In this document: one piece after another, positions 12,172-31,628 of the stretch | Position numbering within the stretch: the first letter of the stretch is position 1 | Layout of the letters: each line of letters begins with the position of its first letter | IMG/VR virus record: IMGVR_UViG_3300008007_000037 | Location: 1 to 37,134 of that record | Source: a virus | Taxonomy: Duplodnaviria; Caudoviricetes | Direction: 5' to 3' (one strand) | DNA: 37,134 bases | The notes under the pieces: model-generated | The model's database searches: none | Seen by the model: only the letters and a program-made list of their open reading frames with translations | What the model was told of the DNA's origin: nothing | Position numbers and translations under genes: made by a program

Positions 12172-12963
12172 CTAAATAGGCAAATGCACATTACTCAAAT
12201 GAGCTTTTGAAATATGCGTATAAATCATGGTAGTTTCTATGCGTGAATGACCGAGCATATTGGCTAATGTAGGTAAATCAACGCCACTTTCTATAAGCGT
12301 AGTAGCAAAGCTGTGTCTTAACTGATGAAAATGCACGTTTGATCCGATATATCGCTTTACAATTTTATTGCAACTCATAGGTGAATATTGCTCAGAAAAT
12401 TGACCTTTAAAAAGATAAATCGTTGGTCTGTATTGTTTGTAGTATTCACGCAAAACAAGCAACACGTTTTCGCTCAAAGGCAGATTGCGATCTTTAAACC
12501 CTTTGCTGCACTTAATGGTTATTTCCATTCGATCACTATCTATATCAGTCAGCTTCAAATTACAAACTTCACTTACTCTCAATCCCACAGAATTACCAAG
12601 CATCATAATAGCTTTATGCTTTAAATTATCACATCGATCAATACCATCAAGAATCACTTTTTTAGCAATAGCTTTTGGTAGTTTCTTATGCTTTCTAGGT
12701 CTGTAAAAAATGACTTTATTATACTTTTTACCCAATACAGATTGGTAAAAAAACTTCAATGCATTCACCACTTGGTTTTGGTGCGACTGCGATTTATACT
12801 GATAGTTTTCAATGTATTTCTGAAACTCGTCAGCGCTTACTCTGTTTGCAGGTTTATCTAATTGATGCAAATATTGATTTATAAAATGCAGATATATCTT
12901 TTGCGTGTTTTTGGCGTAACCAAGCAGCCGCATTTTCTGCTCTGAACTTTGGTAAAAATCCAT
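12172..12963 (-). CDS. Tyrosine recombinase (XerD/integron-integrase-like, about 263 aa) adjacent to the cassette array
   Basis: GLRVSEV (R), SKGFKDR (K), HQLRHSFAT (HxxR), LGHSRIETTMIYTH (H, Y); SAM-like N-terminal domain; start taken at ATG 12963. Confidence 0.93.
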   Translation of the reverse strand: MDFYQSSEQKMRLLGYAKNTQKIYLHFINQYLHQLDKPANRVSADEFQKYIENYQYKSQSHQNQVVNALKFFYQSVLGKKYNKVIFYRPRKHKKLPKAIAKKVILDGIDRCDNLKHKAIMMLGNSVGLRVSEVCNLKLTDIDSDRMEITIKCSKGFKDRNLPLSENVLLVLREYYKQYRPTIYLFKGQFSEQYSPMSCNKIVKRYIGSNVHFHQLRHSFATTLIESGVDLPTLANMLGHSRIETTMIYTHISKAHLSNVHLPI

Positions 12964-13241: not shown

Positions 13242-13367
13242 CTACAACAATAAATATGAAGTAATAAGGCAAGTCCGTTGACTCGGACGATTTTTGTATA
13301 AGCAGTTATCAACTGCGGTATCTCATTTATTTTATTTGCCTTACTACTCATATTATTAACGTTGTGG
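13242..13367 (+). repeat. attC-like site 1
   Basis: AAC 13246; arms AATATGAAGTAATAAGGCAA / TTGCCTTACTACTCATATT; GTT 13361. Confidence 0.85.
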
Positions 13368-13376
13368 TGCATTTGC

Positions 13377-13598
13377 CTACGCACCTCTTAAAATAGCCTT
13401 TCTGTTTTCAATATCTACTTCAAATTCAATTCCACAGTCACATTTACAAGGTGAGTGCCTGTTTACATTTGCCATTACATCATCAGGGCAATTTTCAAGT
13501 GTATATACTTCTAAAAAGCAATCACCACTTTTGCTTTGAAATTCCCTTTCTTCCCCACAATTAGGGCAGTTTACCATTACAGAATCATACATTCCCAT
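13377..13598 (-). CDS. Cassette 2 protein, Zn-ribbon-like
   Basis: MGMYD...CPNCG...FQSKSGDC...CDCG. Confidence 0.8.
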   Translation of the reverse strand: MGMYDSVMVNCPNCGEEREFQSKSGDCFLEVYTLENCPDDVMANVNRHSPCKCDCGIEFEVDIENRKAILRGA

Positions 13599-13612
13599 CG
13601 CTCAAAAACGCA

Positions 13613-13743
13613 CCACAACAATGTATAACAGCAATAGCGGTTGCGGTGCTTAATTTTAGCACTATTGCTTTCAATTAATATATGTTTTAACTCAATCATT
13701 CGTGCTTCTTAATCCGCTACTGCGGTTATACTCTCCGTTGTGC
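13613..13743 (+). repeat. attC-like site 2
   Basis: AAC 13617; arms GTATAACAGCAATAGCGG / CCGCTACTGCGGTTATAC; GTT 13737. Confidence 0.85.
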
Positions 13744-13758
13744 TTCATTAAAACGAAA

Positions 13759-14206
13759 GCACAACATGCAATATAAAACATGCTTATTGCTGTGCTTCGT
13801 TTCAACGTCTGTGCTATTAGGAAGGGAAATAATAATGCCTTCCCACGCTCAACTACTTCTTAATTTCAGGCCAGTTCCATTGTCCAGCTTCTTCACCTTT
13901 CAATGCACTTGTAACCCAAAAACTACCCTCACCATCATTTTGCACATTTAAGTTGATAGCTGCTTCTTCAGTATCTCCCCAAACTGCCACTACAATAGCG
14001 GGTAGTTTTTCTTGAACATTGCAGTTTGACGCATCTTCCATACGCTTCTGCTCTTCTTTTGTGGTGTTATAAATAACCACTCTTCCAATTGTTGGTAACA
14101 TAATAAATATGGGTTTTACAAAGCCCGCCCAAGGCATTATTATTTTTGTTCTTCGTAGCAAGGTCAGTGCTATATTCCGCACGTTTCATATTGCTGTACG
14201 TTGGCA
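13759..14206 (+). repeat. attC-like site 3, expanded (gene inside loop)
   Basis: AAC 13763; arms GCAATATAAAACATGC (13768) / GCACGTTTCATATTGC (14179); GTT 14200. Confidence 0.8.
13853..14101 (-). CDS. Hypothetical protein (82 aa) nested in attC3
   Basis: MLPTIGRVVIY...LPAIVVAVW...WNWPEIKK; start reassigned to ATG 14101. Confidence 0.8.
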   Translation of the reverse strand: MLPTIGRVVIYNTTKEEQKRMEDASNCNVQEKLPAIVVAVWGDTEEAAINLNVQNDGEGSFWVTSALKGEEAGQWNWPEIKK

Positions 14207-14210
14207 GCAA

Positions 14211-14483
14211 TTAGAACAACTTACCAAACAACTTTCTGATTTCGGGCTTATGAGTAACGTCATTACCATAATCTGATACGTTATTGACGAATTCCGCTAT
14301 ATTTTCCTTATCAATAGTTCCAGTCGATTCGACTATTGCGAAATGTCCTTGAATGGCCTGATCTTCCCATTCCCAAGCTATATAAGCCCGAAATTGTCCA
14401 TTTTCAGGAAGCAATACAATACCCCCAATTGCTTTACCTTTTACTCTTGAGTAATCTTTTGATTTTGTTTTGACTGAATTCAT
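14211..14483 (-). CDS. Cassette 4 hypothetical protein
   Basis: ORF bounded by IR GTTGGCAGCAATTA / TAACTGCTGCCAAC. Confidence 0.8.
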   Translation of the reverse strand: MNSVKTKSKDYSRVKGKAIGGIVLLPENGQFRAYIAWEWEDQAIQGHFAIVESTGTIDKENIAEFVNNVSDYGNDVTHKPEIRKLFGKLF

Positions 14484-14502
14484 TTTCGATTGAATTAACT
14501 GC

Positions 14503-14632
14503 TGCCAACAATTGCTATAAAAACATAGGGCAGTCAGTGGTTATACAAAGTGTAGGGGTCTTTATTGTCGTCCGTGCTTATCGGACAGTTTCGGCTATCT
14601 ATGCCCTACGTTTCATAGCATAGCCGTTATAG
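14503..14632 (+). repeat. attC-like site 4
   Basis: AAC 14507; arms GCTATAAAAACATAGGGC / GCCCTACGTTTCATAGC; GTT 14626. Confidence 0.85.
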
Positions 14633-14638
14633 GTAAGG

Positions 14639-14836
14639 CTAAAAATGCTTCGGACACCATTCCCAATTTTCCTCACGAAATTGTTTAACAGGAATAGTAA
14701 CAACCGTGCATCCAACAGCGATATATTCACCATACTCTCGTTTCTCTTTTAATGTTGGTTTGTCATTTGGTTGCCCAGCCAATTTATATTTGTTTCCTTC
14801 ACACGGACATTTAAAAATTCTTACAGGTTGTTCCAT
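14639..14836 (-). CDS. Cassette 5 small Cys-containing protein
   Basis: ORF bounded by IR GTTATAGGTAAGGCT / AGCCCTACCTATAAC. Confidence 0.78.
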   Translation of the reverse strand: MEQPVRIFKCPCEGNKYKLAGQPNDKPTLKEKREYGEYIAVGCTVVTIPVKQFREENWEWCPKHF

Positions 14837-14863
14837 TTTATTTAAGTTTGTGAGAAGCCCTAC

Positions 14864-14996
14864 CTATAACAGCACATAGGCAATATGGCGGGGTTCTCGG
14901 TTAATATTAAGTTTAGTTTTTCAAATCAAGTTTAGTGCTTATAGATAGTTTTCGTTTCCAAAATCCGCCACATCGCCTATCTGCAAAACGTTATAG
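14864..14996 (+). repeat. attC-like site 5
   Basis: AAC 14868; arms GCACATAGGCAATATGGCGG / CCGCCACATCGCCTATCTGC; GTT 14990. Confidence 0.85.
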
Positions 14997-15001
14997 GGCA
15001 T

Positions 15002-15325
15002 TTACTGCAACCTTAAAGACCTAAACCAATTCAATAATCTATTTTTATTACCAAGAGAGTATCCCCATTTTCCAGTAATCAAAAAGGTTAGTGGCAGTCC
15101 TACAATCATTAATAGCATTGTGAGTAACGCAAATGGCAGAGTTAACCTTATCCAAAAACTTACAGGCTCTTTTTCTTCGTAGTAAAAATCCATCCTCAAT
15201 TCAATCAACCTATCTACCATTTCCTCGCTACTAAGTTTTGAAAGTTCAGGAAAAACCTTTTTGAATCTCGGCATATAATTAGCATATCCGTTTGACCAAG
15301 TACGTTTTAGTTTTCTATACATCAT
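15002..15325 (-). CDS. Cassette 6 membrane protein
   Basis: Hydrophobic LTLPFALLTMLLMIVGLPLTFLITG; bounded by IR GTTATAGGGCATTT / AAACGCCCTATAAC. Confidence 0.8.
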   Translation of the reverse strand: MMYRKLKRTWSNGYANYMPRFKKVFPELSKLSSEEMVDRLIELRMDFYYEEKEPVSFWIRLTLPFALLTMLLMIVGLPLTFLITGKWGYSLGNKNRLLNWFRSLRLQ

Positions 15326-15337
15326 AATAAAAACGCC

Positions 15338-15467
15338 CTATAACAAAGTGTATAGCAAATAGCCGTTATTGGGCTGTAATTAAACTATTTGCGTGTTTAT
15401 AAATTAGTTTCTTATCTCAATGGTCTGTGCATTTTATCGGCTACTTGCCATACACAAAACGCTATAA
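15338..15467 (+). repeat. attC-like site 6 (right end reads GCT, fused to attC7 arm)
   Basis: AAC 15342; arms GTGTATAGCAAATAGCCG / CGGCTACTTGCCATACAC. Confidence 0.8.
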
Positions 15468-15924
15468 GTAATGCGGGTGTCGTAGCTCGTATGAAGGTTT
15501 GTGCTATGCTTCTTTTTTTGCCAACGCACTGTAATCAATATCATCAATAAAATCGTCAACTTCACACATCATTAATTCAGCGTATTTCTGATTAATGGCT
15601 TTTGATGTTTCAGATTCGCTTTTTGATGATAATTCATAAATCAGTTCTTTCAACGCTTTTATTTGTGATGATTGCCATTCAACCATACATAGAGGACAGC
15701 TTTGAGATTCCCCATTTACATCTGTCCACATATACTCATATATGGTCTTGTTTCCGCATTCACAACTTGTGTGGTTGTCTTTGTCCTTTAGGTGTTTTGA
15801 AGTTATAGTTTCCATTTTATATTTAGTTTATGCCCACGCTCAAAAAAGAAGCGGGAGCGGTTAATACTCGTATCAAGGTCAGTTCTGTAATGCCCGCACT
15901 ACCCATAGCTGTGTTACGTTATGC
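15461..15924 (+). repeat. attC-like site 7, expanded (gene inside loop)
   Basis: Arms GCTATAAGTAATGCGGG (15461) / CCCGCACTACCCATAGC (15893); GTT 15918. Confidence 0.75.
15504..15815 (-). CDS. Zn-finger-like hypothetical protein nested in attC7
   Basis: CECG...CPLC followed by coiled coil. Confidence 0.8.
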   Translation of the reverse strand: METITSKHLKDKDNHTSCECGNKTIYEYMWTDVNGESQSCPLCMVEWQSSQIKALKELIYELSSKSESETSKAINQKYAELMMCEVDDFIDDIDYSALAKKEA

Positions 15925-16116
15925 GCAATTAAGTTCCGATAACTTTACCGTTAACCAATATGGCACATCATACTCTTCATCATTTCTTACATATTCTCCT
16001 TCTTCATCCCAGTCCCAAAATGGATTAGCTATATTGCAAGTCCCATCTTCAAATATTGTTTCTATATGTGTTTGTTTCCCTGCATATTCAACTGTTTGAC
16101 CTTCTTCGTATTTCAT
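15919..16116 (-). CDS. Cassette 8 small acidic protein (65 aa)
   Basis: MKYEEGQTVEY...; start reassigned to 16116; stop overlaps the GTTA core. Confidence 0.78.
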   Translation of the reverse strand: MKYEEGQTVEYAGKQTHIETIFEDGTCNIANPFWDWDEEGEYVRNDEEYDVPYWLTVKLSELNCA

Positions 16117-16134
16117 AATATTTTTAATAAAAGC

Positions 16135-16227
16135 GCATAACCCACGGTATAAACAAACCGCCAATTAGCCTTATTTGTACTATTGAACTGTCTTATAGGC
16201 GGTCAGTTCATACCGCTCTTGTTACCG
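16135..16227 (+). repeat. attC-like site 8
   Basis: AAC 16139; arms CGGTATAAACAAACCGCC / GGCGGTCAGTTCATACCG; GTT 16221. Confidence 0.82.
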
Positions 16228-16295
16228 TGCATTGCTATAAAATTAATTAGTAGCAATCTTTGAACGTCACAGCCTTAAAGAAGGAAGCAACGACA

Positions 16296-16610
16296 CGGTA
16301 ACATTTTGTATAAATAATAATTAAAAACCGAACGGGCTACCATCTTTGAAAATATCGCCAAAAATGGAGCTAAACGGATTTTCTTCCGTACACTTATATA
16401 CTATTAATTTACCAAAATCAGGGTATTTCTTTTTCAAATAATCCTCGAATTTCACCTGAGCTTCTACACTGCTATATTTGTTTTTAGCTCGCATAGTTCC
16501 GCTTTTCAAAACCGCACCATTTTTAGCTTGTGCGGTATATTTAATTAAGTAGTTCTTTTGTTGCATTTTATCATGTTTTTAATTACTATTCATACAATTT
16601 ACCGTTATCT
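16296..16610 (+). repeat. attC-like site 9, expanded (gene inside loop)
   Basis: AAC 16300; arms TTGTATAAATAATAATTAAAAAC / GTTTTTAATTACTATTCATACAA; GTT 16604. Confidence 0.8.
16321..16566 (-). CDS. Hypothetical protein nested in attC9
   Basis: 81 aa ORF; its stop codon lies in the left arm of the hairpin. Confidence 0.78.
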   Translation of the reverse strand: MQQKNYLIKYTAQAKNGAVLKSGTMRAKNKYSSVEAQVKFEDYLKKKYPDFGKLIVYKCTEENPFSSIFGDIFKDGSPFGF

Positions 16611-16805
16611 TCAAGTTTTCCCTCCACCGCGCTCTAAGGGCAACCGTACTATCCGATACTTTTCGTTTTCAAATTCTTTTTGCTTTTTTTTAGAAAAGAC
16701 GTGTTCCAGTTGATTTGCTGTCAACTCGGTAGCTTCCAAAATAGGAGATCGCGAACCAAATATTCGCGCTTCCCCTGTCTGTTTGTTTAAGAACCAGTAT
16801 GGCAT
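16611..16805 (-). CDS. Cassette 10 small protein, possibly DNA-binding
   Basis: 64 aa basic, helix-turn-helix-like middle. Confidence 0.65.
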   Translation of the reverse strand: MPYWFLNKQTGEARIFGSRSPILEATELTANQLEHVFSKKKQKEFENEKYRIVRLPLERGGGKT

Positions 16806-16811
16806 AACTGT

Positions 16812-17057
16812 TTAATTTACGGTATATTGATCAATTTGCTGCCAGTCAAATTCAGGATAAACCTTTTTGTTTTCCCTCGCTGTTACCGTTACGCTGACAT
16901 TGTTTTGCTTTGCTATTTGAATGTACTGGTCTATAAAATTTGATGACTTTTCAACGTCATTACTTGTAATGGAGCAGGAGCTTCCTATTCCTTCCAATGG
17001 CTTTGAGTAGTTGAACTCAATTCTAAATTTGTTTTTTGGGCTTCTTAATTTTGACAT
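16812..17057 (-). CDS. Cassette 10 hypothetical protein
   Basis: 81 aa ORF in a tight operon. Confidence 0.7.
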   Translation of the reverse strand: MSKLRSPKNKFRIEFNYSKPLEGIGSSCSITSNDVEKSSNFIDQYIQIAKQNNVSVTVTARENKKVYPEFDWQQIDQYTVN

Positions 17058-17065
17058 GGTATTGA

Positions 17066-17383
17066 TTATTTAGTGTTAGACATCATTCTTACTTTATCAG
17101 CTCCGAAGTAAGCAACTGCTTTAGCGTGGTTGCTTTCAGAGTAAGGCTTTGTGTAGGTTGTTCCGATTTCGCAATCAAAAGTTCCCAATCTACTTTGAGC
17201 TTCTTGAAGGTTACCCATCAAATCCATTCTTTTCAGTCCTTCGCTGATTGTGATTTTTCTAAAGTTGTTCATCAAATCAACCATGAAGTCTTTTAAGCTC
17301 ACGTTGTAAAACCCTTTGATTTTGCTGTTGTAGTAGTTTACTACTTCTTCTCTGTTGGCTTTTAAAAATTCTTGAGTTGTCAT
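17066..17383 (-). CDS. Cassette 10 hypothetical protein
   Basis: Start at ATG 17383 (MTTQEFL) downstream of a TATATTTG promoter box. Confidence 0.75.
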   Translation of the reverse strand: MTTQEFLKANREEVVNYYNSKIKGFYNVSLKDFMVDLMNNFRKITISEGLKRMDLMGNLQEAQSRLGTFDCEIGTTYTKPYSESNHAKAVAYFGADKVRMMSNTK

Positions 17384-17413
17384 TTCGTTGTCTTTTTGTT
17401 TGTTTCTATACCC

Positions 17414-17446
17414 CAAATATACAACCTATTTTGGAACTACCAAAGA
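17414..17446 (-). promoter_or_regulatory. Host-type (Bacteroidota sigma-A) promoter within cassette 10
   Basis: -7 box TATATTTG at 17421-17414 with TTTG about 20 nt upstream. Confidence 0.7.
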
Positions 17447-17507
17447 AAAAAGCAAAATATTTCAAATAATTTGTGTTTTCGTAAAGCCAACGCGCGGAAA
17501 AACCAGA

Positions 17508-17571
17508 AGATAACAGCACCTAAATCGCCATGCCCTGTGGGACACAGGCGTTTAGCTGCATCACGTTCTCT
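17508..17571 (+). repeat. attC-like site 10 (short, about 60 bp)
   Basis: AAC 17512; arms GCACCTAAATCGCC / GGCGTTTAGCTGC; GTT 17565. Confidence 0.8.
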
Positions 17572-17602
17572 GCAAGTGCTACAATCCTGCTAAAACAGAA
17601 CA

Positions 17603-17839
17603 TTATCCCTCCGAATCTTTTTCTTTTCTTTCCTCCCCCGCACTCAAAAACGAAATAGCTTTTTCAGCTACTTGCTTTTGATTTTCAATTACAGGTAGCA
17701 ACTTAGCTTTTGATGCTTCTGTCATTCGCTGATCCCCGTTCAGCATCATGTTAAGGAAGCGGATGTTGATACCCGCTTCCTTGCAAATTCCTGACTTGTT
17801 GATACCAGGCTGATCGAAAAATTCTTGGACCTCTTTCAT
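17603..17839 (-). CDS. HTH DNA-binding protein
   Basis: INKSGICKEAGINIRFLNMMLNG XRE-like HTH. Confidence 0.72.
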   Translation of the reverse strand: MKEVQEFFDQPGINKSGICKEAGINIRFLNMMLNGDQRMTEASKAKLLPVIENQKQVAEKAISFLSAGEERKEKDSEG

Positions 17840-17879
17840 CTCCCAGTTGTATTGTGTTCGGGAAGTTGTGTTGCGTTAC

Positions 17880-18068
17880 CTAAATAGCGTGTTTATCTAT
17901 TTCGGCTGCATAGTATTGTTTCACTTTTATTCCGAGCTTCTGCAATGCTAATTGTCCGCAACTCATACCGTCAAACCGCGATAACACGGTAATTCCTTCG
18001 GCTTCTGAAAAGCCGTTTTTGCCACCGCTTGAATTGATAATTATAATGTCGTATTCGTGCAAATTCAT
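17880..18068 (-). pseudogene. Chimeric remnant: PAPS-reductase-like N-terminus fused to a C5 DNA methyltransferase motif I fragment
   Basis: YDIIIINSSGGK then ITVLSRFDGMSCGQLAL...YYAAEIDKHAI*. Confidence 0.7.
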
Positions 18069-18150: not shown

Positions 18151-18457
18151 TGTCGGATGAACATTGTGCTAAAATACACTTAAACAATTGATTTACATAT
18201 ACTTTAACATTAAAAACCAGCCGACAAAATCCGACATGTACAAACTTAAACAATTGTTTAACAGTGTTTTGCGCTTGTCGCGTTCCGACAAATTTTGTCG
18301 GAAATTTCCGACAAAATTTGTCGGATTTGTCGGACGTTAATTTACTGATTTTCAATTTAATTGATGTTAATTTGTCGGATTTTGTCGGCTGCATTTCGTT
18401 GTTTTTTGTAGGTTTTACGGGCTTTTCAGGCGTTTTTATGCGTTTTTCAATCCGACA
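18151..18457. repeat. Cluster of 11 CCGACA/TGTCGG hexamers; candidate replication origin
   Basis: Copies at 18151, 18221, 18231, 18285, 18296, 18308, 18319, 18328, 18373, 18383, 18452 in AT-rich DNA next to the replication gene. Confidence 0.75.
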
Positions 18458-30722: not shown

Positions 30723-30989
30723 ATGGATCAATACTCAGAAATAGCACTGAAAAAAATAGGCGAAGGCGTGAAAATAATGATAAAAGCACGCAAAATACCT
30801 ATCGAACACCTGGCAGCACAAAGTGGAATTTCAAAACAAGTAATCTATAACATAATTAATGGGAAAGATTATCAAATCAGTTCGCTCATTAAAATATTCA
30901 GAATATTAAAAGTGCACATTGATTTTTCATTAATGGATTCGAAAAACAATATTATTGCTCAAAGCGGTGACAATATTTCGATGAATTAA
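30723..30989 (+). CDS. XRE-family HTH protein
   Basis: IEHLAAQSGISKQVIYNIINGKDYQISSLIKI; start reassigned to MDQYSE. Confidence 0.8.
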   Translation: MDQYSEIALKKIGEGVKIMIKARKIPIEHLAAQSGISKQVIYNIINGKDYQISSLIKIFRILKVHIDFSLMDSKNNIIAQSGDNISMN

Positions 30990-31628
30990 AAATTGTAGTC
31001 GCTATGCTTTTTTAGCAATGATGAAATATCACAATTATCTTTTTGCTTTTCTAAAAAAAGCTTTTTCAATACTTTATTAGCCACTTTCGAACTCTTTTCA
31101 AAACCTTCCGGCATGTGTATTTTCAAGTTATCTATAAATTCAGAATAGAATGCATAAATACGTTTGCTTTCGTCTATTTCAAAAGTCTCACAAGTAGCGT
31201 TTGCATTTAAATTCATGCTAGTTCTAATCACCACATTATGACTTTCGCCCTTAATCAATGTAAATTTTGCATGTATCTCGCTGGTCCTTATGTTTTCAGA
31301 TCCAAATAATTCTGTTAAAGTAACTGCATACTTGTCTGGTCACATAACTATGATCGGTAATTATCGTAAAATCAGTAATAAGTTTAGAATCTTTAAGCCA
31401 TGCTACTTTTTTGGCATCTTTTACACCAGCACTCCAAGTTACCACCTTTACAGAACTTGGTCCAATGATATCAAGCACGGCTTTTATAAGATCGATTAAT
31501 GAAAATTTACCCAAAGTAAGACCCATTATCCTTTTATCATGATCAAATCCATCTAAAACTTCTAAAGCTGATGAACTTGATACATAAAGAAAATCATCAA
31601 TATCCTTTTGGGTTAAATCTAAAGTCAT
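30986..31628 (-). pseudogene. Phospholipase D-like (HKD-type nuclease) gene split by a frameshift near 31330
   Basis: Joined frames read ...DHSYVTRQ/KYAVTLTELFGSENIRTSEIHAKFTLIKGESHNVVIRTSMNLN, with HxK and SxN motifs. Confidence 0.72.

Follow-up and report, generated by a model that had tools for sequence, protein, structure and literature searches.

A nonamer pair frames cargo genes in a minority of attC-like cassettes in integron-like phage arrays

Integrons carry small, mostly promoterless genes between folded AAC...GTT recombination sites (attC sites) that lie beside a tyrosine recombinase. The excerpts of PMC5371416 and PMC12901181 used here describe the origin of their cassettes as largely unknown. 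Phages also carry such sites: excerpts of Qi et al. 2023 (PMC9892861) describe phage-borne clusters of attC sites lacking integron-integrases (CALINs) and report that IntI1 recombined one site of Polaribacter phage origin. A second described system is that of the promoter early stem-loops (PeSLs) of T4-type phages, in which small non-essential genes are flanked by short repeats linked to stem-loops, and exchange between these repeats leads to gene shuffling and to the formation of mini-circles (Arbiol et al. 2010, PMC2839356, in excerpt). Here we describe an array in a 37-kb record of a tailed phage (IMG/VR record IMGVR_UViG_3300008007_000037, positions 1 to 37,134; this whole stretch of 37,134 nucleotides is called the window) in which a nonamer, CCMMCGCNC, frames genes within attC-like cassettes. 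The left copy of the nonamer in each unit is designated N1 and the right copy N2.

Like an integron, the window array has AAC...GTT folded sites beside a tyrosine recombinase and holds small, mostly promoterless genes. It differs from integrons in four respects: the recombinase lacks the IntI insertion, the genes are mostly antisense to the top (+) strand, genes are also found in the loops of sites (so that sites reach 300-460 nt, compared to 57-141 bp in the excerpt of PMC5371416), and a second frame, that of the nonamer, is nested within the first, for which the integron literature covered here offers no counterpart. The nonamer resembles the PeSLs, as excerpted, in being a short conserved repeat that is linked to stem-loops and flanks small phage genes. 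PeSLs, in contrast, are promoter and terminator modules with longer homology, while the nonamer is 9 nt in length and nested within attC-like sites, where it marks the 3' end of the gene.

Three units of the window, A, B and C, have the layout arm, nonamer, gene or genes, nonamer, complementary arm that an initial annotation had read there, with every arm and nonamer that it quoted in place on the + strand. The reading frames that run through a nonamer (ending SALAKKEA*, ERGGGKT* and SAGEERKEKDSEG*) are likewise present in the list of open reading frames (ORFs). Unit A has arms at 13827-13841 and 14131-14145 that are complementary at 15/15 positions, N1 at 13842-13850 and an 82-aa minus-strand gene (13853-14101) that is shifted aside by 9 nt of spacer. 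Its right copy, CCCGCCC (14124-14130), had been called degenerate; it is instead a conserved variant, as the right leader of A recurs with other genes in loci L068 and L265. The same unit is also found in L467. The gene of A has 18 homologues, in which the native C-terminus is kept, and none in cultured phages. Unit B has arms at 15508-15520 and 15842-15852, N1 at 15521-15529, N2 at 15833-15841 and a 103-aa minus-strand gene (15504-15815). Its scaffold recurs with another gene in L279, and its own gene has no relative in viral contigs except in a copy of the window phage. Unit C is a cassette body (16604..17514) whose outer arms (16604-16623 and 17496-17514) are the ordinary complementary cores of that body; it has N1 at 16624-16632, N2 at 17487-17495 and three minus-strand genes (16611-16805, 16812-17057 and 17066-17386). 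Insert C also holds a Bacteroidota sigma-A promoter-like site on the minus strand (17414..17443), made up of TTG, which we take to be the -33 box, 19 nt and TATATTTG. The -7 box of Bacteroidota is TAnnTTTG in the excerpt of PMC9723704 used here. Promoter-like sites lie within 130 nt of N2 in 9/94 right junctions.

Two further units, D and E, had been overlooked. Unit D (13361..13619, short arm to complementary arm, + strand) has one mismatch in each nonamer (N1, CCTACGCAC, 13376-13384; N2, CCATCGCTC, 13595-13603), and its 73-aa minus-strand gene (13377-13598) has its stop inside N1 and its start inside N2. The nonamer at 17635 had been considered an orphan; it pairs with CCACCGCTT at 18022 as the N1 of a decayed unit E with a long left arm (17565..18030, + strand; N1, 17635-17643; look-alike N2, 18022-18030). 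Unit E contains a 78-aa gene (17603-17839) and the minus-strand remnant of a C5-methyltransferase gene with a nonsense codon (17838-18026). Its N1 lies 70 nt behind the GTT of the preceding site (17565), within the 65-74 nt band of long left arms. Units A and B are located within the loops of sites, and C and D within cassette bodies. The six exact nonamers between 13200 and 17800, all on the + strand (13842, 15521, 15833, 16624, 17487 and 17635), exceed chance: 1000 dinucleotide shuffles average 0.105 copies and never contain more than 3. The whole window has eight nonamers, 1.12 being expected, and none of 100 shuffles reaches eight.

The nonamer is enriched at insert boundaries in homologous arrays, as had been predicted. 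In 80 viral loci selected by integrase profile (some are duplicates; 66 are distinct), the 5 kb upstream of the integrase start (253 kb in total) contain 32 exact nonamers on the top strand and one on the other strand, while the far, downstream side of the integrase (356 kb) has one and four on the two strands. Nonamers lie 15-26 or 65-74 nt behind the GTT core, and 21-23 or about 70 nt before the AAC core. A search for left junctions of the D type (short arm) only, in three collections (54, 33, and 120 fetched of about 350 estimated), gave 169 distinct junctions, and a matching right arm was found for 92 of them. Although these 92 cassettes were chosen by left junction alone, 85 have N2 near the right end (63 exact), 10-36 nt from it, compared to 1-6 of 92 in shifted control windows. 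Among the 77 junctions with no matching right arm, 32 were too short, 12 were long and G+C-rich (likely chance matches) and 33 were long and A/T-rich. The cargo between nonamers comprises 91 proteins in 74 families. The claim of a conserved motif on variable stems also holds: aside from the recurrence of scaffolds A and B with other genes, a partner nonamer and complementary arms were found for 20/77 nonamers in the 66 integrase-selected arrays plus the window, with about ten different arm sequences (a count made with no shuffled or random-anchor control, in which a few pairs are weak). A nonamer-class cassette is also carried by a cultured phage, Maribacter phage Panino (PP540027.1, around 42128-42405).

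Both copies are C-rich on the attC top strand, whichever strand holds the gene. N1 mostly ends CAC and abuts the 3' end of the gene; N2 mostly ends CTC. Across the 74 families, information content falls from 2.47 bits at the last base of N1 (N1 itself being fixed by the search) to 0.02 at the next base: N1 is a sharp gene junction, behind which no base is conserved. In 75/77 nonamer-class cassettes no 3' untranslated DNA is present, the stop codon being located within the core or arm or directly against N1. Nonamer-free cassettes follow a similar rule: 65/65 (L043-L576 and window 14990-15344) have no 3' untranslated DNA, with a filter that admitted stops up to 60 nt in, and the stop is in the GTT core or at the edge of CATT. 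These stop positions are 11 nt further out, which is the length of TG plus N1. The stop-codon rule of the nonamer-free class may be more informative on cassette genesis than the nonamer itself. Homologues lacking a nonamer run 3-6 codons further than the nonamer form, in which the last 3-6 codons are replaced (L395/L302 and L338/L053); with 35-77% identity, these homologues are relatives, not donors.

The 5' side is less uniform. ATG is inside N2 in 12/67 families and 14-22 nt away in 53/67, where an N2 with no internal start codon heads an A/T-rich leader. A ribosome-footprint reading of this spacing was rejected, as the leader is inherited with the carrier. In relatives of B, both the leader and an M-E-T start are common to different genes; leaders, and sometimes first codons, shared in this way suggest that the 5' side is often carrier-derived. 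In L069, a top-strand gene lies between N1 and two copies of N2, and in host cassette leaders the C-rich strand of the nonamer is ahead of top-strand genes, indicating that the polarity of the nonamer follows the site and not the gene.

The nonamer frame is real and widespread, and it is a minority adaptor rather than a universal loading signal: of 50 filled CATT...AACG cassettes in the integrase-selected loci, 46 have neither copy and two have both, so the nonamer is not the general signal for loading. The predicted empty allele with a single nonamer did not materialize. An arm, one nonamer and the opposite arm do refold in silico as a hairpin with the nonamer at its tip, but no natural allele of this form was seen. 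Exact scans found no single-nonamer empty hairpin in 241 million metagenome records (where about 350 left junctions are estimated) or in the genome collection (33 left junctions), and there was none among the 169 left junctions, the shortest of the 92 cassettes being 196 nt; these searches used exact patterns of the short-arm class and are weaker for long arms. None was seen by eye among 94 right junctions. TTTG-nonamer-CAAA occurs eight times in 201 Bacteroidota genomes and eight times in the reversed control, and only nine of 637 A/T-context nonamers in the collected loci have flanking complementarity, the best of these being double-nonamer loops (discussed below). The empty cassette that is observed is nonamer-free with the loop ATTAAAAC (about 350 stretches estimated in viral contigs, 112 distinct; in the window, 13737..13765 on the + strand). 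Arm types are common to these nonamer-free empties and to filled forms, and filled cassettes of the nonamer-free class have the same empties as their empty form. In the 66 integrase-selected arrays, the loop motif CATT(A/T)AAACG, present both as an empty cassette body and as the loop of short sites, has 63 top-strand copies and a single copy on the opposite strand.

Left and right copies of the nonamer are identical in only 11/85 cassettes, so the repeats are not duplications. Base 8 differs systematically (A in 63/92 left copies, T in 70/85 right copies), and target-site duplication at the nonamer was rejected. An attG-type reading was also rejected, since most variants have no GTT. Five large phage records contain 26 nonamer matches: about half are in arrays and the rest are near the reversed control (8), which argues against a stock of nonamer-flanked donors in these records.

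In host attC sites and cassette leaders (L583, L616, L612, L613 and L306) and in one phage locus (L678), some hairpins have a loop that contains two nonamers separated by 3-6 nt. These double-nonamer loops are a candidate source of the nonamer frame, and would be its unfilled form if genes are inserted between the two nonamers. Scanning viral sequences for close nonamer pairs gave 15 stretches with no empty carrier, and a looser scan gave mostly chance matches. In the host leaders of chained hairpins (G001 L590 and L584; G407 L612 and L613; G045 L589; G510 L815), there is a common internal loop, ACA opposite AGA, and the tips are nonamer-like.

Exchange at nonamers is visible in several comparisons. 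In three pairs of loci (L257/L262, L292/L441 and L248/L371), the arms around the same gene differ and homology stops at the nonamers; the same leader also occurs with right arms of both the short and the long type. From 13595, the first base of the N2 of unit D, window DNA is shared by contigs that belong to another phage of the same samples and have a different gene. In unit E, the 78-aa gene replaces most of the C5-methyltransferase gene, with joins at N1 and at its own ATG inside the old cargo. The leader of this methyltransferase is fused on the minus strand to the first 17 codons of a PAPS-reductase-family gene (18018..18068): residues 1-17 of the chimera are 17/17 identical to protein P0256 (PF01507), and residues 16-62 match P0140-type methyltransferases, whose leader normally reads ...L-S-D-G-K-N-G-F. 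The fusion point is formed by S-G-G-K codons that spell the nonamer on the bottom strand. By these protein matches, the crossover would be a natural nonamer look-alike inside the PAPS-reductase gene, and the chimera fits plain short-homology recombination as well as it fits an enzyme. The chimera (17838-18068, minus strand) has its nonsense codon at 17880-17882, and its methyltransferase reading extends over another 14 codons, up to the ATG with which the following gene begins.

We consider the chances about even that the nonamer pair is a carrier frame, that genes were joined precisely behind N1 by a general loader, and that the nonamers later served as swap points. The pair would belong to a minority carrier class in a Bacteroidota phage integron-like system, whose cassettes would be handled as folded single strands by analogy with attC sites (PMC5371416, in excerpt). 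Loading would be one-ended. The carrier would be broken directly 3' of N1 (or, in plain loops, of CATT) and joined there to the donor near its stop codon, and the far end would be resolved less precisely, at N2, in the leader, at the ATG, or inside older cargo (as in unit E and L069). The same process would likely fill plain ATTAAAAC loops. As the only G+C-rich unpaired patch that is common to otherwise different arms, the nonamer could seed strand annealing between cassettes, swapping both cargo and arms, and could occasionally anneal with a natural look-alike in unrelated coding DNA, as at 18022. The array recombinase would move whole cassettes at G|TT cores and need not act at the nonamer.

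Several observations weigh against this carrier-frame interpretation. The true 5' junction is often the start codon or the first codons, not N2. The 33 long, A/T-rich left junctions with no matching right arm mean that N1 often stands without a partner arm, and one arm type is common to 40/74 families, so that a part of the conservation reflects descent from a small number of founders. The chimera is a single event whose donor DNA is deduced from protein sequences. Neither an enzyme nor a reaction intermediate was seen, and the contigs of eight sequencing runs from one aquifer campaign, several of which may be the source of the window, contain no joint skipping A-D and no excised form (such contigs drop rare forms, and nothing is concluded from this absence). 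The nonamer is scarce in 21 host array regions (167 sites), with eight on the top strand and two on the bottom. The double-nonamer loops are a handful of hand-picked cases whose pattern counts are not above controls: one pattern was found in 1/401 genomes, another gave 11 matches compared to 50 in the reversed control (81 genomes), the collected loci gave three compared to one in the control, and no double-nonamer loop was found behind a short-arm left junction.

The junctions could instead be the footprint of cassette-making itself. A top-strand nick after CATT (in plain loops) or after the nonamer would provide a 3' end that primes copying of the gene from stop to start, on messenger RNA or single-stranded DNA as template, before the strand returns to the far arm; the nonamer would be a second, retargeted priming site that also joins foreign genes bearing a look-alike. 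We regard this scheme as rather unlikely, and the same applies to its details on the nick, the template and the retargeted site. The antisense bias of the cargo and the lack of kept 3' untranslated DNA are to be set beside it, yet promoter-like sites lie inside C and near N2 in some junctions, top-strand genes occur in hosts and in L069, and no reverse transcriptase was found in the window or in the five phage records. Another doubtful possibility is that the nonamers are relics of founder cassettes, kept as the stop (N1) and the start or leader (N2) of the genes, with illegitimate exchange and trimming by selection accounting for the rest. The dominance of one arm type, the minority status of the class, the N2 copies that hold the ATG and the stops provided by read-through of N1 in most cases would all fit, as would the fact that some cassettes (L081, L803 and L811) ordinarily end on the right in a similar sequence, AACG followed by the start of the arm. 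Common descent does not readily explain why about ten unrelated complementary arm pairs, in bodies and in loops, carry the same nonamer pair, or why polarity follows the attC strand and not the gene; moreover, no carrier base and almost no 3' untranslated DNA remains behind N1, though such DNA should be harmless. An element that acts in RNA and not in the joining of DNA, bracketing the message as a leader hairpin, pseudoknot partner or processing site, would account for the fixed spacing of 14-22 nt to the start codon, and in unit B the CGCTC within N2 has a possible pairing partner, GAGCG, 13 nt further out. This pairing partner is absent from the short-arm class, the motif keeps to the attC strand when the gene is on the other strand (L069 and host leaders), and Rfam gave no match in the window array or in two host regions; we consider a purely RNA-level role very unlikely.

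The remaining alternatives invoke a dedicated reaction at the nonamer. Joining of the IS200/IS605 type, as known from the chemistry of IS608, is single-stranded and hairpin-guided, takes place without target duplication, and would give distinct left and right end motifs. A host-encoded HUH-type nuclease-ligase of this kind could move the unit TG-N1-gene-N2-A in and out of an ATT^AAAAC loop, with excision leaving a nonamer-free empty cassette. The filled allele equals the empty allele plus that unit, arm types are common to both, and base 8 differs between left and right as two distinct cleavage sites would. Among the HUH-Y1 enzymes TnpA and TnpA-REP, Bacteroidetes have their own TnpA-Y1 subclass (2.6) with atypical hairpins, according to excerpts of Quentin et al. 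2018 (PMC6006769). The resemblance to HUH targets noted in the initial annotation nevertheless led to no enzyme: there is no Y1 domain in the window or in the five phage records, no transposase in or near the arrays and no tetranucleotide guide was found. Y1 matches occur in 13/26 Flavobacteriaceae genomes, where a host enzyme could act in trans; the 104 kb around 32 host Y1 loci contain six nonamers and no hairpin link to the motif, and host G001 has nonamer leaders with no Y1 match. The sharp junction on the inner side of N1 would also be left unexplained, and this alternative seems quite unlikely. The model of the initial annotation itself, in which an empty hairpin with one nonamer takes up a nonamer-bearing gene circle or duplicates its nonamer, leaving direct repeats, is in our view highly improbable. 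Its geometry and refolding in silico fit, units of DNA plus nonamer stack in L069, and a natural look-alike was used once. Against it stand the absence of single-nonamer empties from the metagenome and genome collections and from the right junctions viewed by eye, the minimum length of 196 nt among the 92 cassettes, the few A/T-context nonamers with flanking complementarity, the rarity of identical copies and the want of nonamer-flanked donors in the five phage records. From the broader proposal that genes are loaded into hairpin loops, the enrichment at boundaries, the variable arms, the sharp gene junction and the look-alike crossover are retained, while the single-nonamer empty allele, the role as a general signal and the HUH link are not.

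As in the de novo formation of integron cassettes (PMC5371416, PMC12901181 and PMC8352920, in excerpt), ORF-precise genes lie beside a recombination site; here, the junction is readable to the base, in 74 gene families and in two carrier classes offset by 11 nt. The frame is apparently undescribed: no description was found in the open-licence literature, in which the motif letters themselves were not queried. It probably offers a way into the question of how new cassettes arise. This family of integron-like arrays offers what classical integrons lack, namely an abundant empty form and dozens of independent captures readable to the base, and the nonamer is a small, mutable target that makes cassette genesis testable at base resolution. 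If only the swap-point part of the interpretation is true, the frame is a neat but modest addition to phage mosaicism.

The array lies to the right of a short tyrosine recombinase (12172..12960, minus strand; 262 aa from the ATG at 12960; Pfam PF00589 and PF13495), which is presumed to be the array integrase. It scores 143.6 bits against TIGR02249, below the cut-off of 265, with the match split into two stretches. The IntI4 structure matches profile positions 7-176 only, and XerA/XerC-like structures match over the full length; by these matches the recombinase lacks the IntI-specific insertion and falls outside the IntI family. It has 1491 homologues, the top ones being 263-269 aa in length. 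A single-protein integrase scan gave only distant relatives (23-36%), and that set was not used. Arrays also adjoin the homologues: 307 sites were called in 66 loci plus the window by a purpose-built detector that uses no covariance model. ORFs in the arrays are mostly antisense to the top strand (340 vs. 54), and identical cassettes occur behind different upstream sites (L244/L265/L436 and L248/L422/L398).

The folded sites of the window array are of the attC type: they have paired L boxes and RYYYAAC / GTTRRRY cores and read AAC...GTT on the + strand, with small genes on the minus strand. The detector called S0 (13242..13367), S1 (13613..13743), S2 (13759..14206, with unit A in its loop) and the nonamer-free sites S3 (14503-14632), S4 (14864-14996), S7 (16135-16227) and S8 (16296-16610, with an 81-aa gene but no nonamers in its loop). 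The nonamer-free S5 (about 15338-15461) and S6 (15461..15924, with unit B in its loop) were read from the sequence. S5 and S6 are fused (15338-15468): S5 lacks its right core and S6 its left core, which would fit the deletion of an empty cassette from between them. S4 and its upstream leader (14834-14996) share 89.5% identity with one of several such sites in Flavobacterium phage hattifnatt9-1 (MN812207.1, 3008-3167), a phage for which the phage collection contains no close integrase relative.

An attC-like pattern was found in 24/31 Flavobacteriaceae genomes (none in the reversed control), in 0/31 genomes of one order and in 5/31 of another. An IntegronFinder survey reports almost no complete integrons in Bacteroidetes (PMC9024848, in excerpt). 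In L306, a Bacteroidales metagenome-assembled genome, a phage-type antisense cassette of the nonamer class (183-512) lies within a host array whose genes are on the top strand, which suggests that cassettes pass between the arrays of phages and hosts.

The window phage is present in aquifer metagenomes, and terminase, head protease, tape measure and helicase were recognised among its gene products. We infer a host among the Bacteroidota from the sites that it has in common with Flavobacterium, Tenacibaculum and Riemerella phages and with Flavobacteriaceae chromosomes. Beyond unit E, the region just downstream of the helicase gene (18156-18403) is a possible replication origin: another attC-like site (18156-18288) there overlaps a perfect palindrome of 21 nt (18284-18325) and an inverted repeat of 31 nt that has CCGACAAA iterations. 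Elsewhere in the genome, two consecutive minus-strand ORFs (30986-31628) match different parts of one endonuclease family (phrog_16945) and probably represent a split gene.

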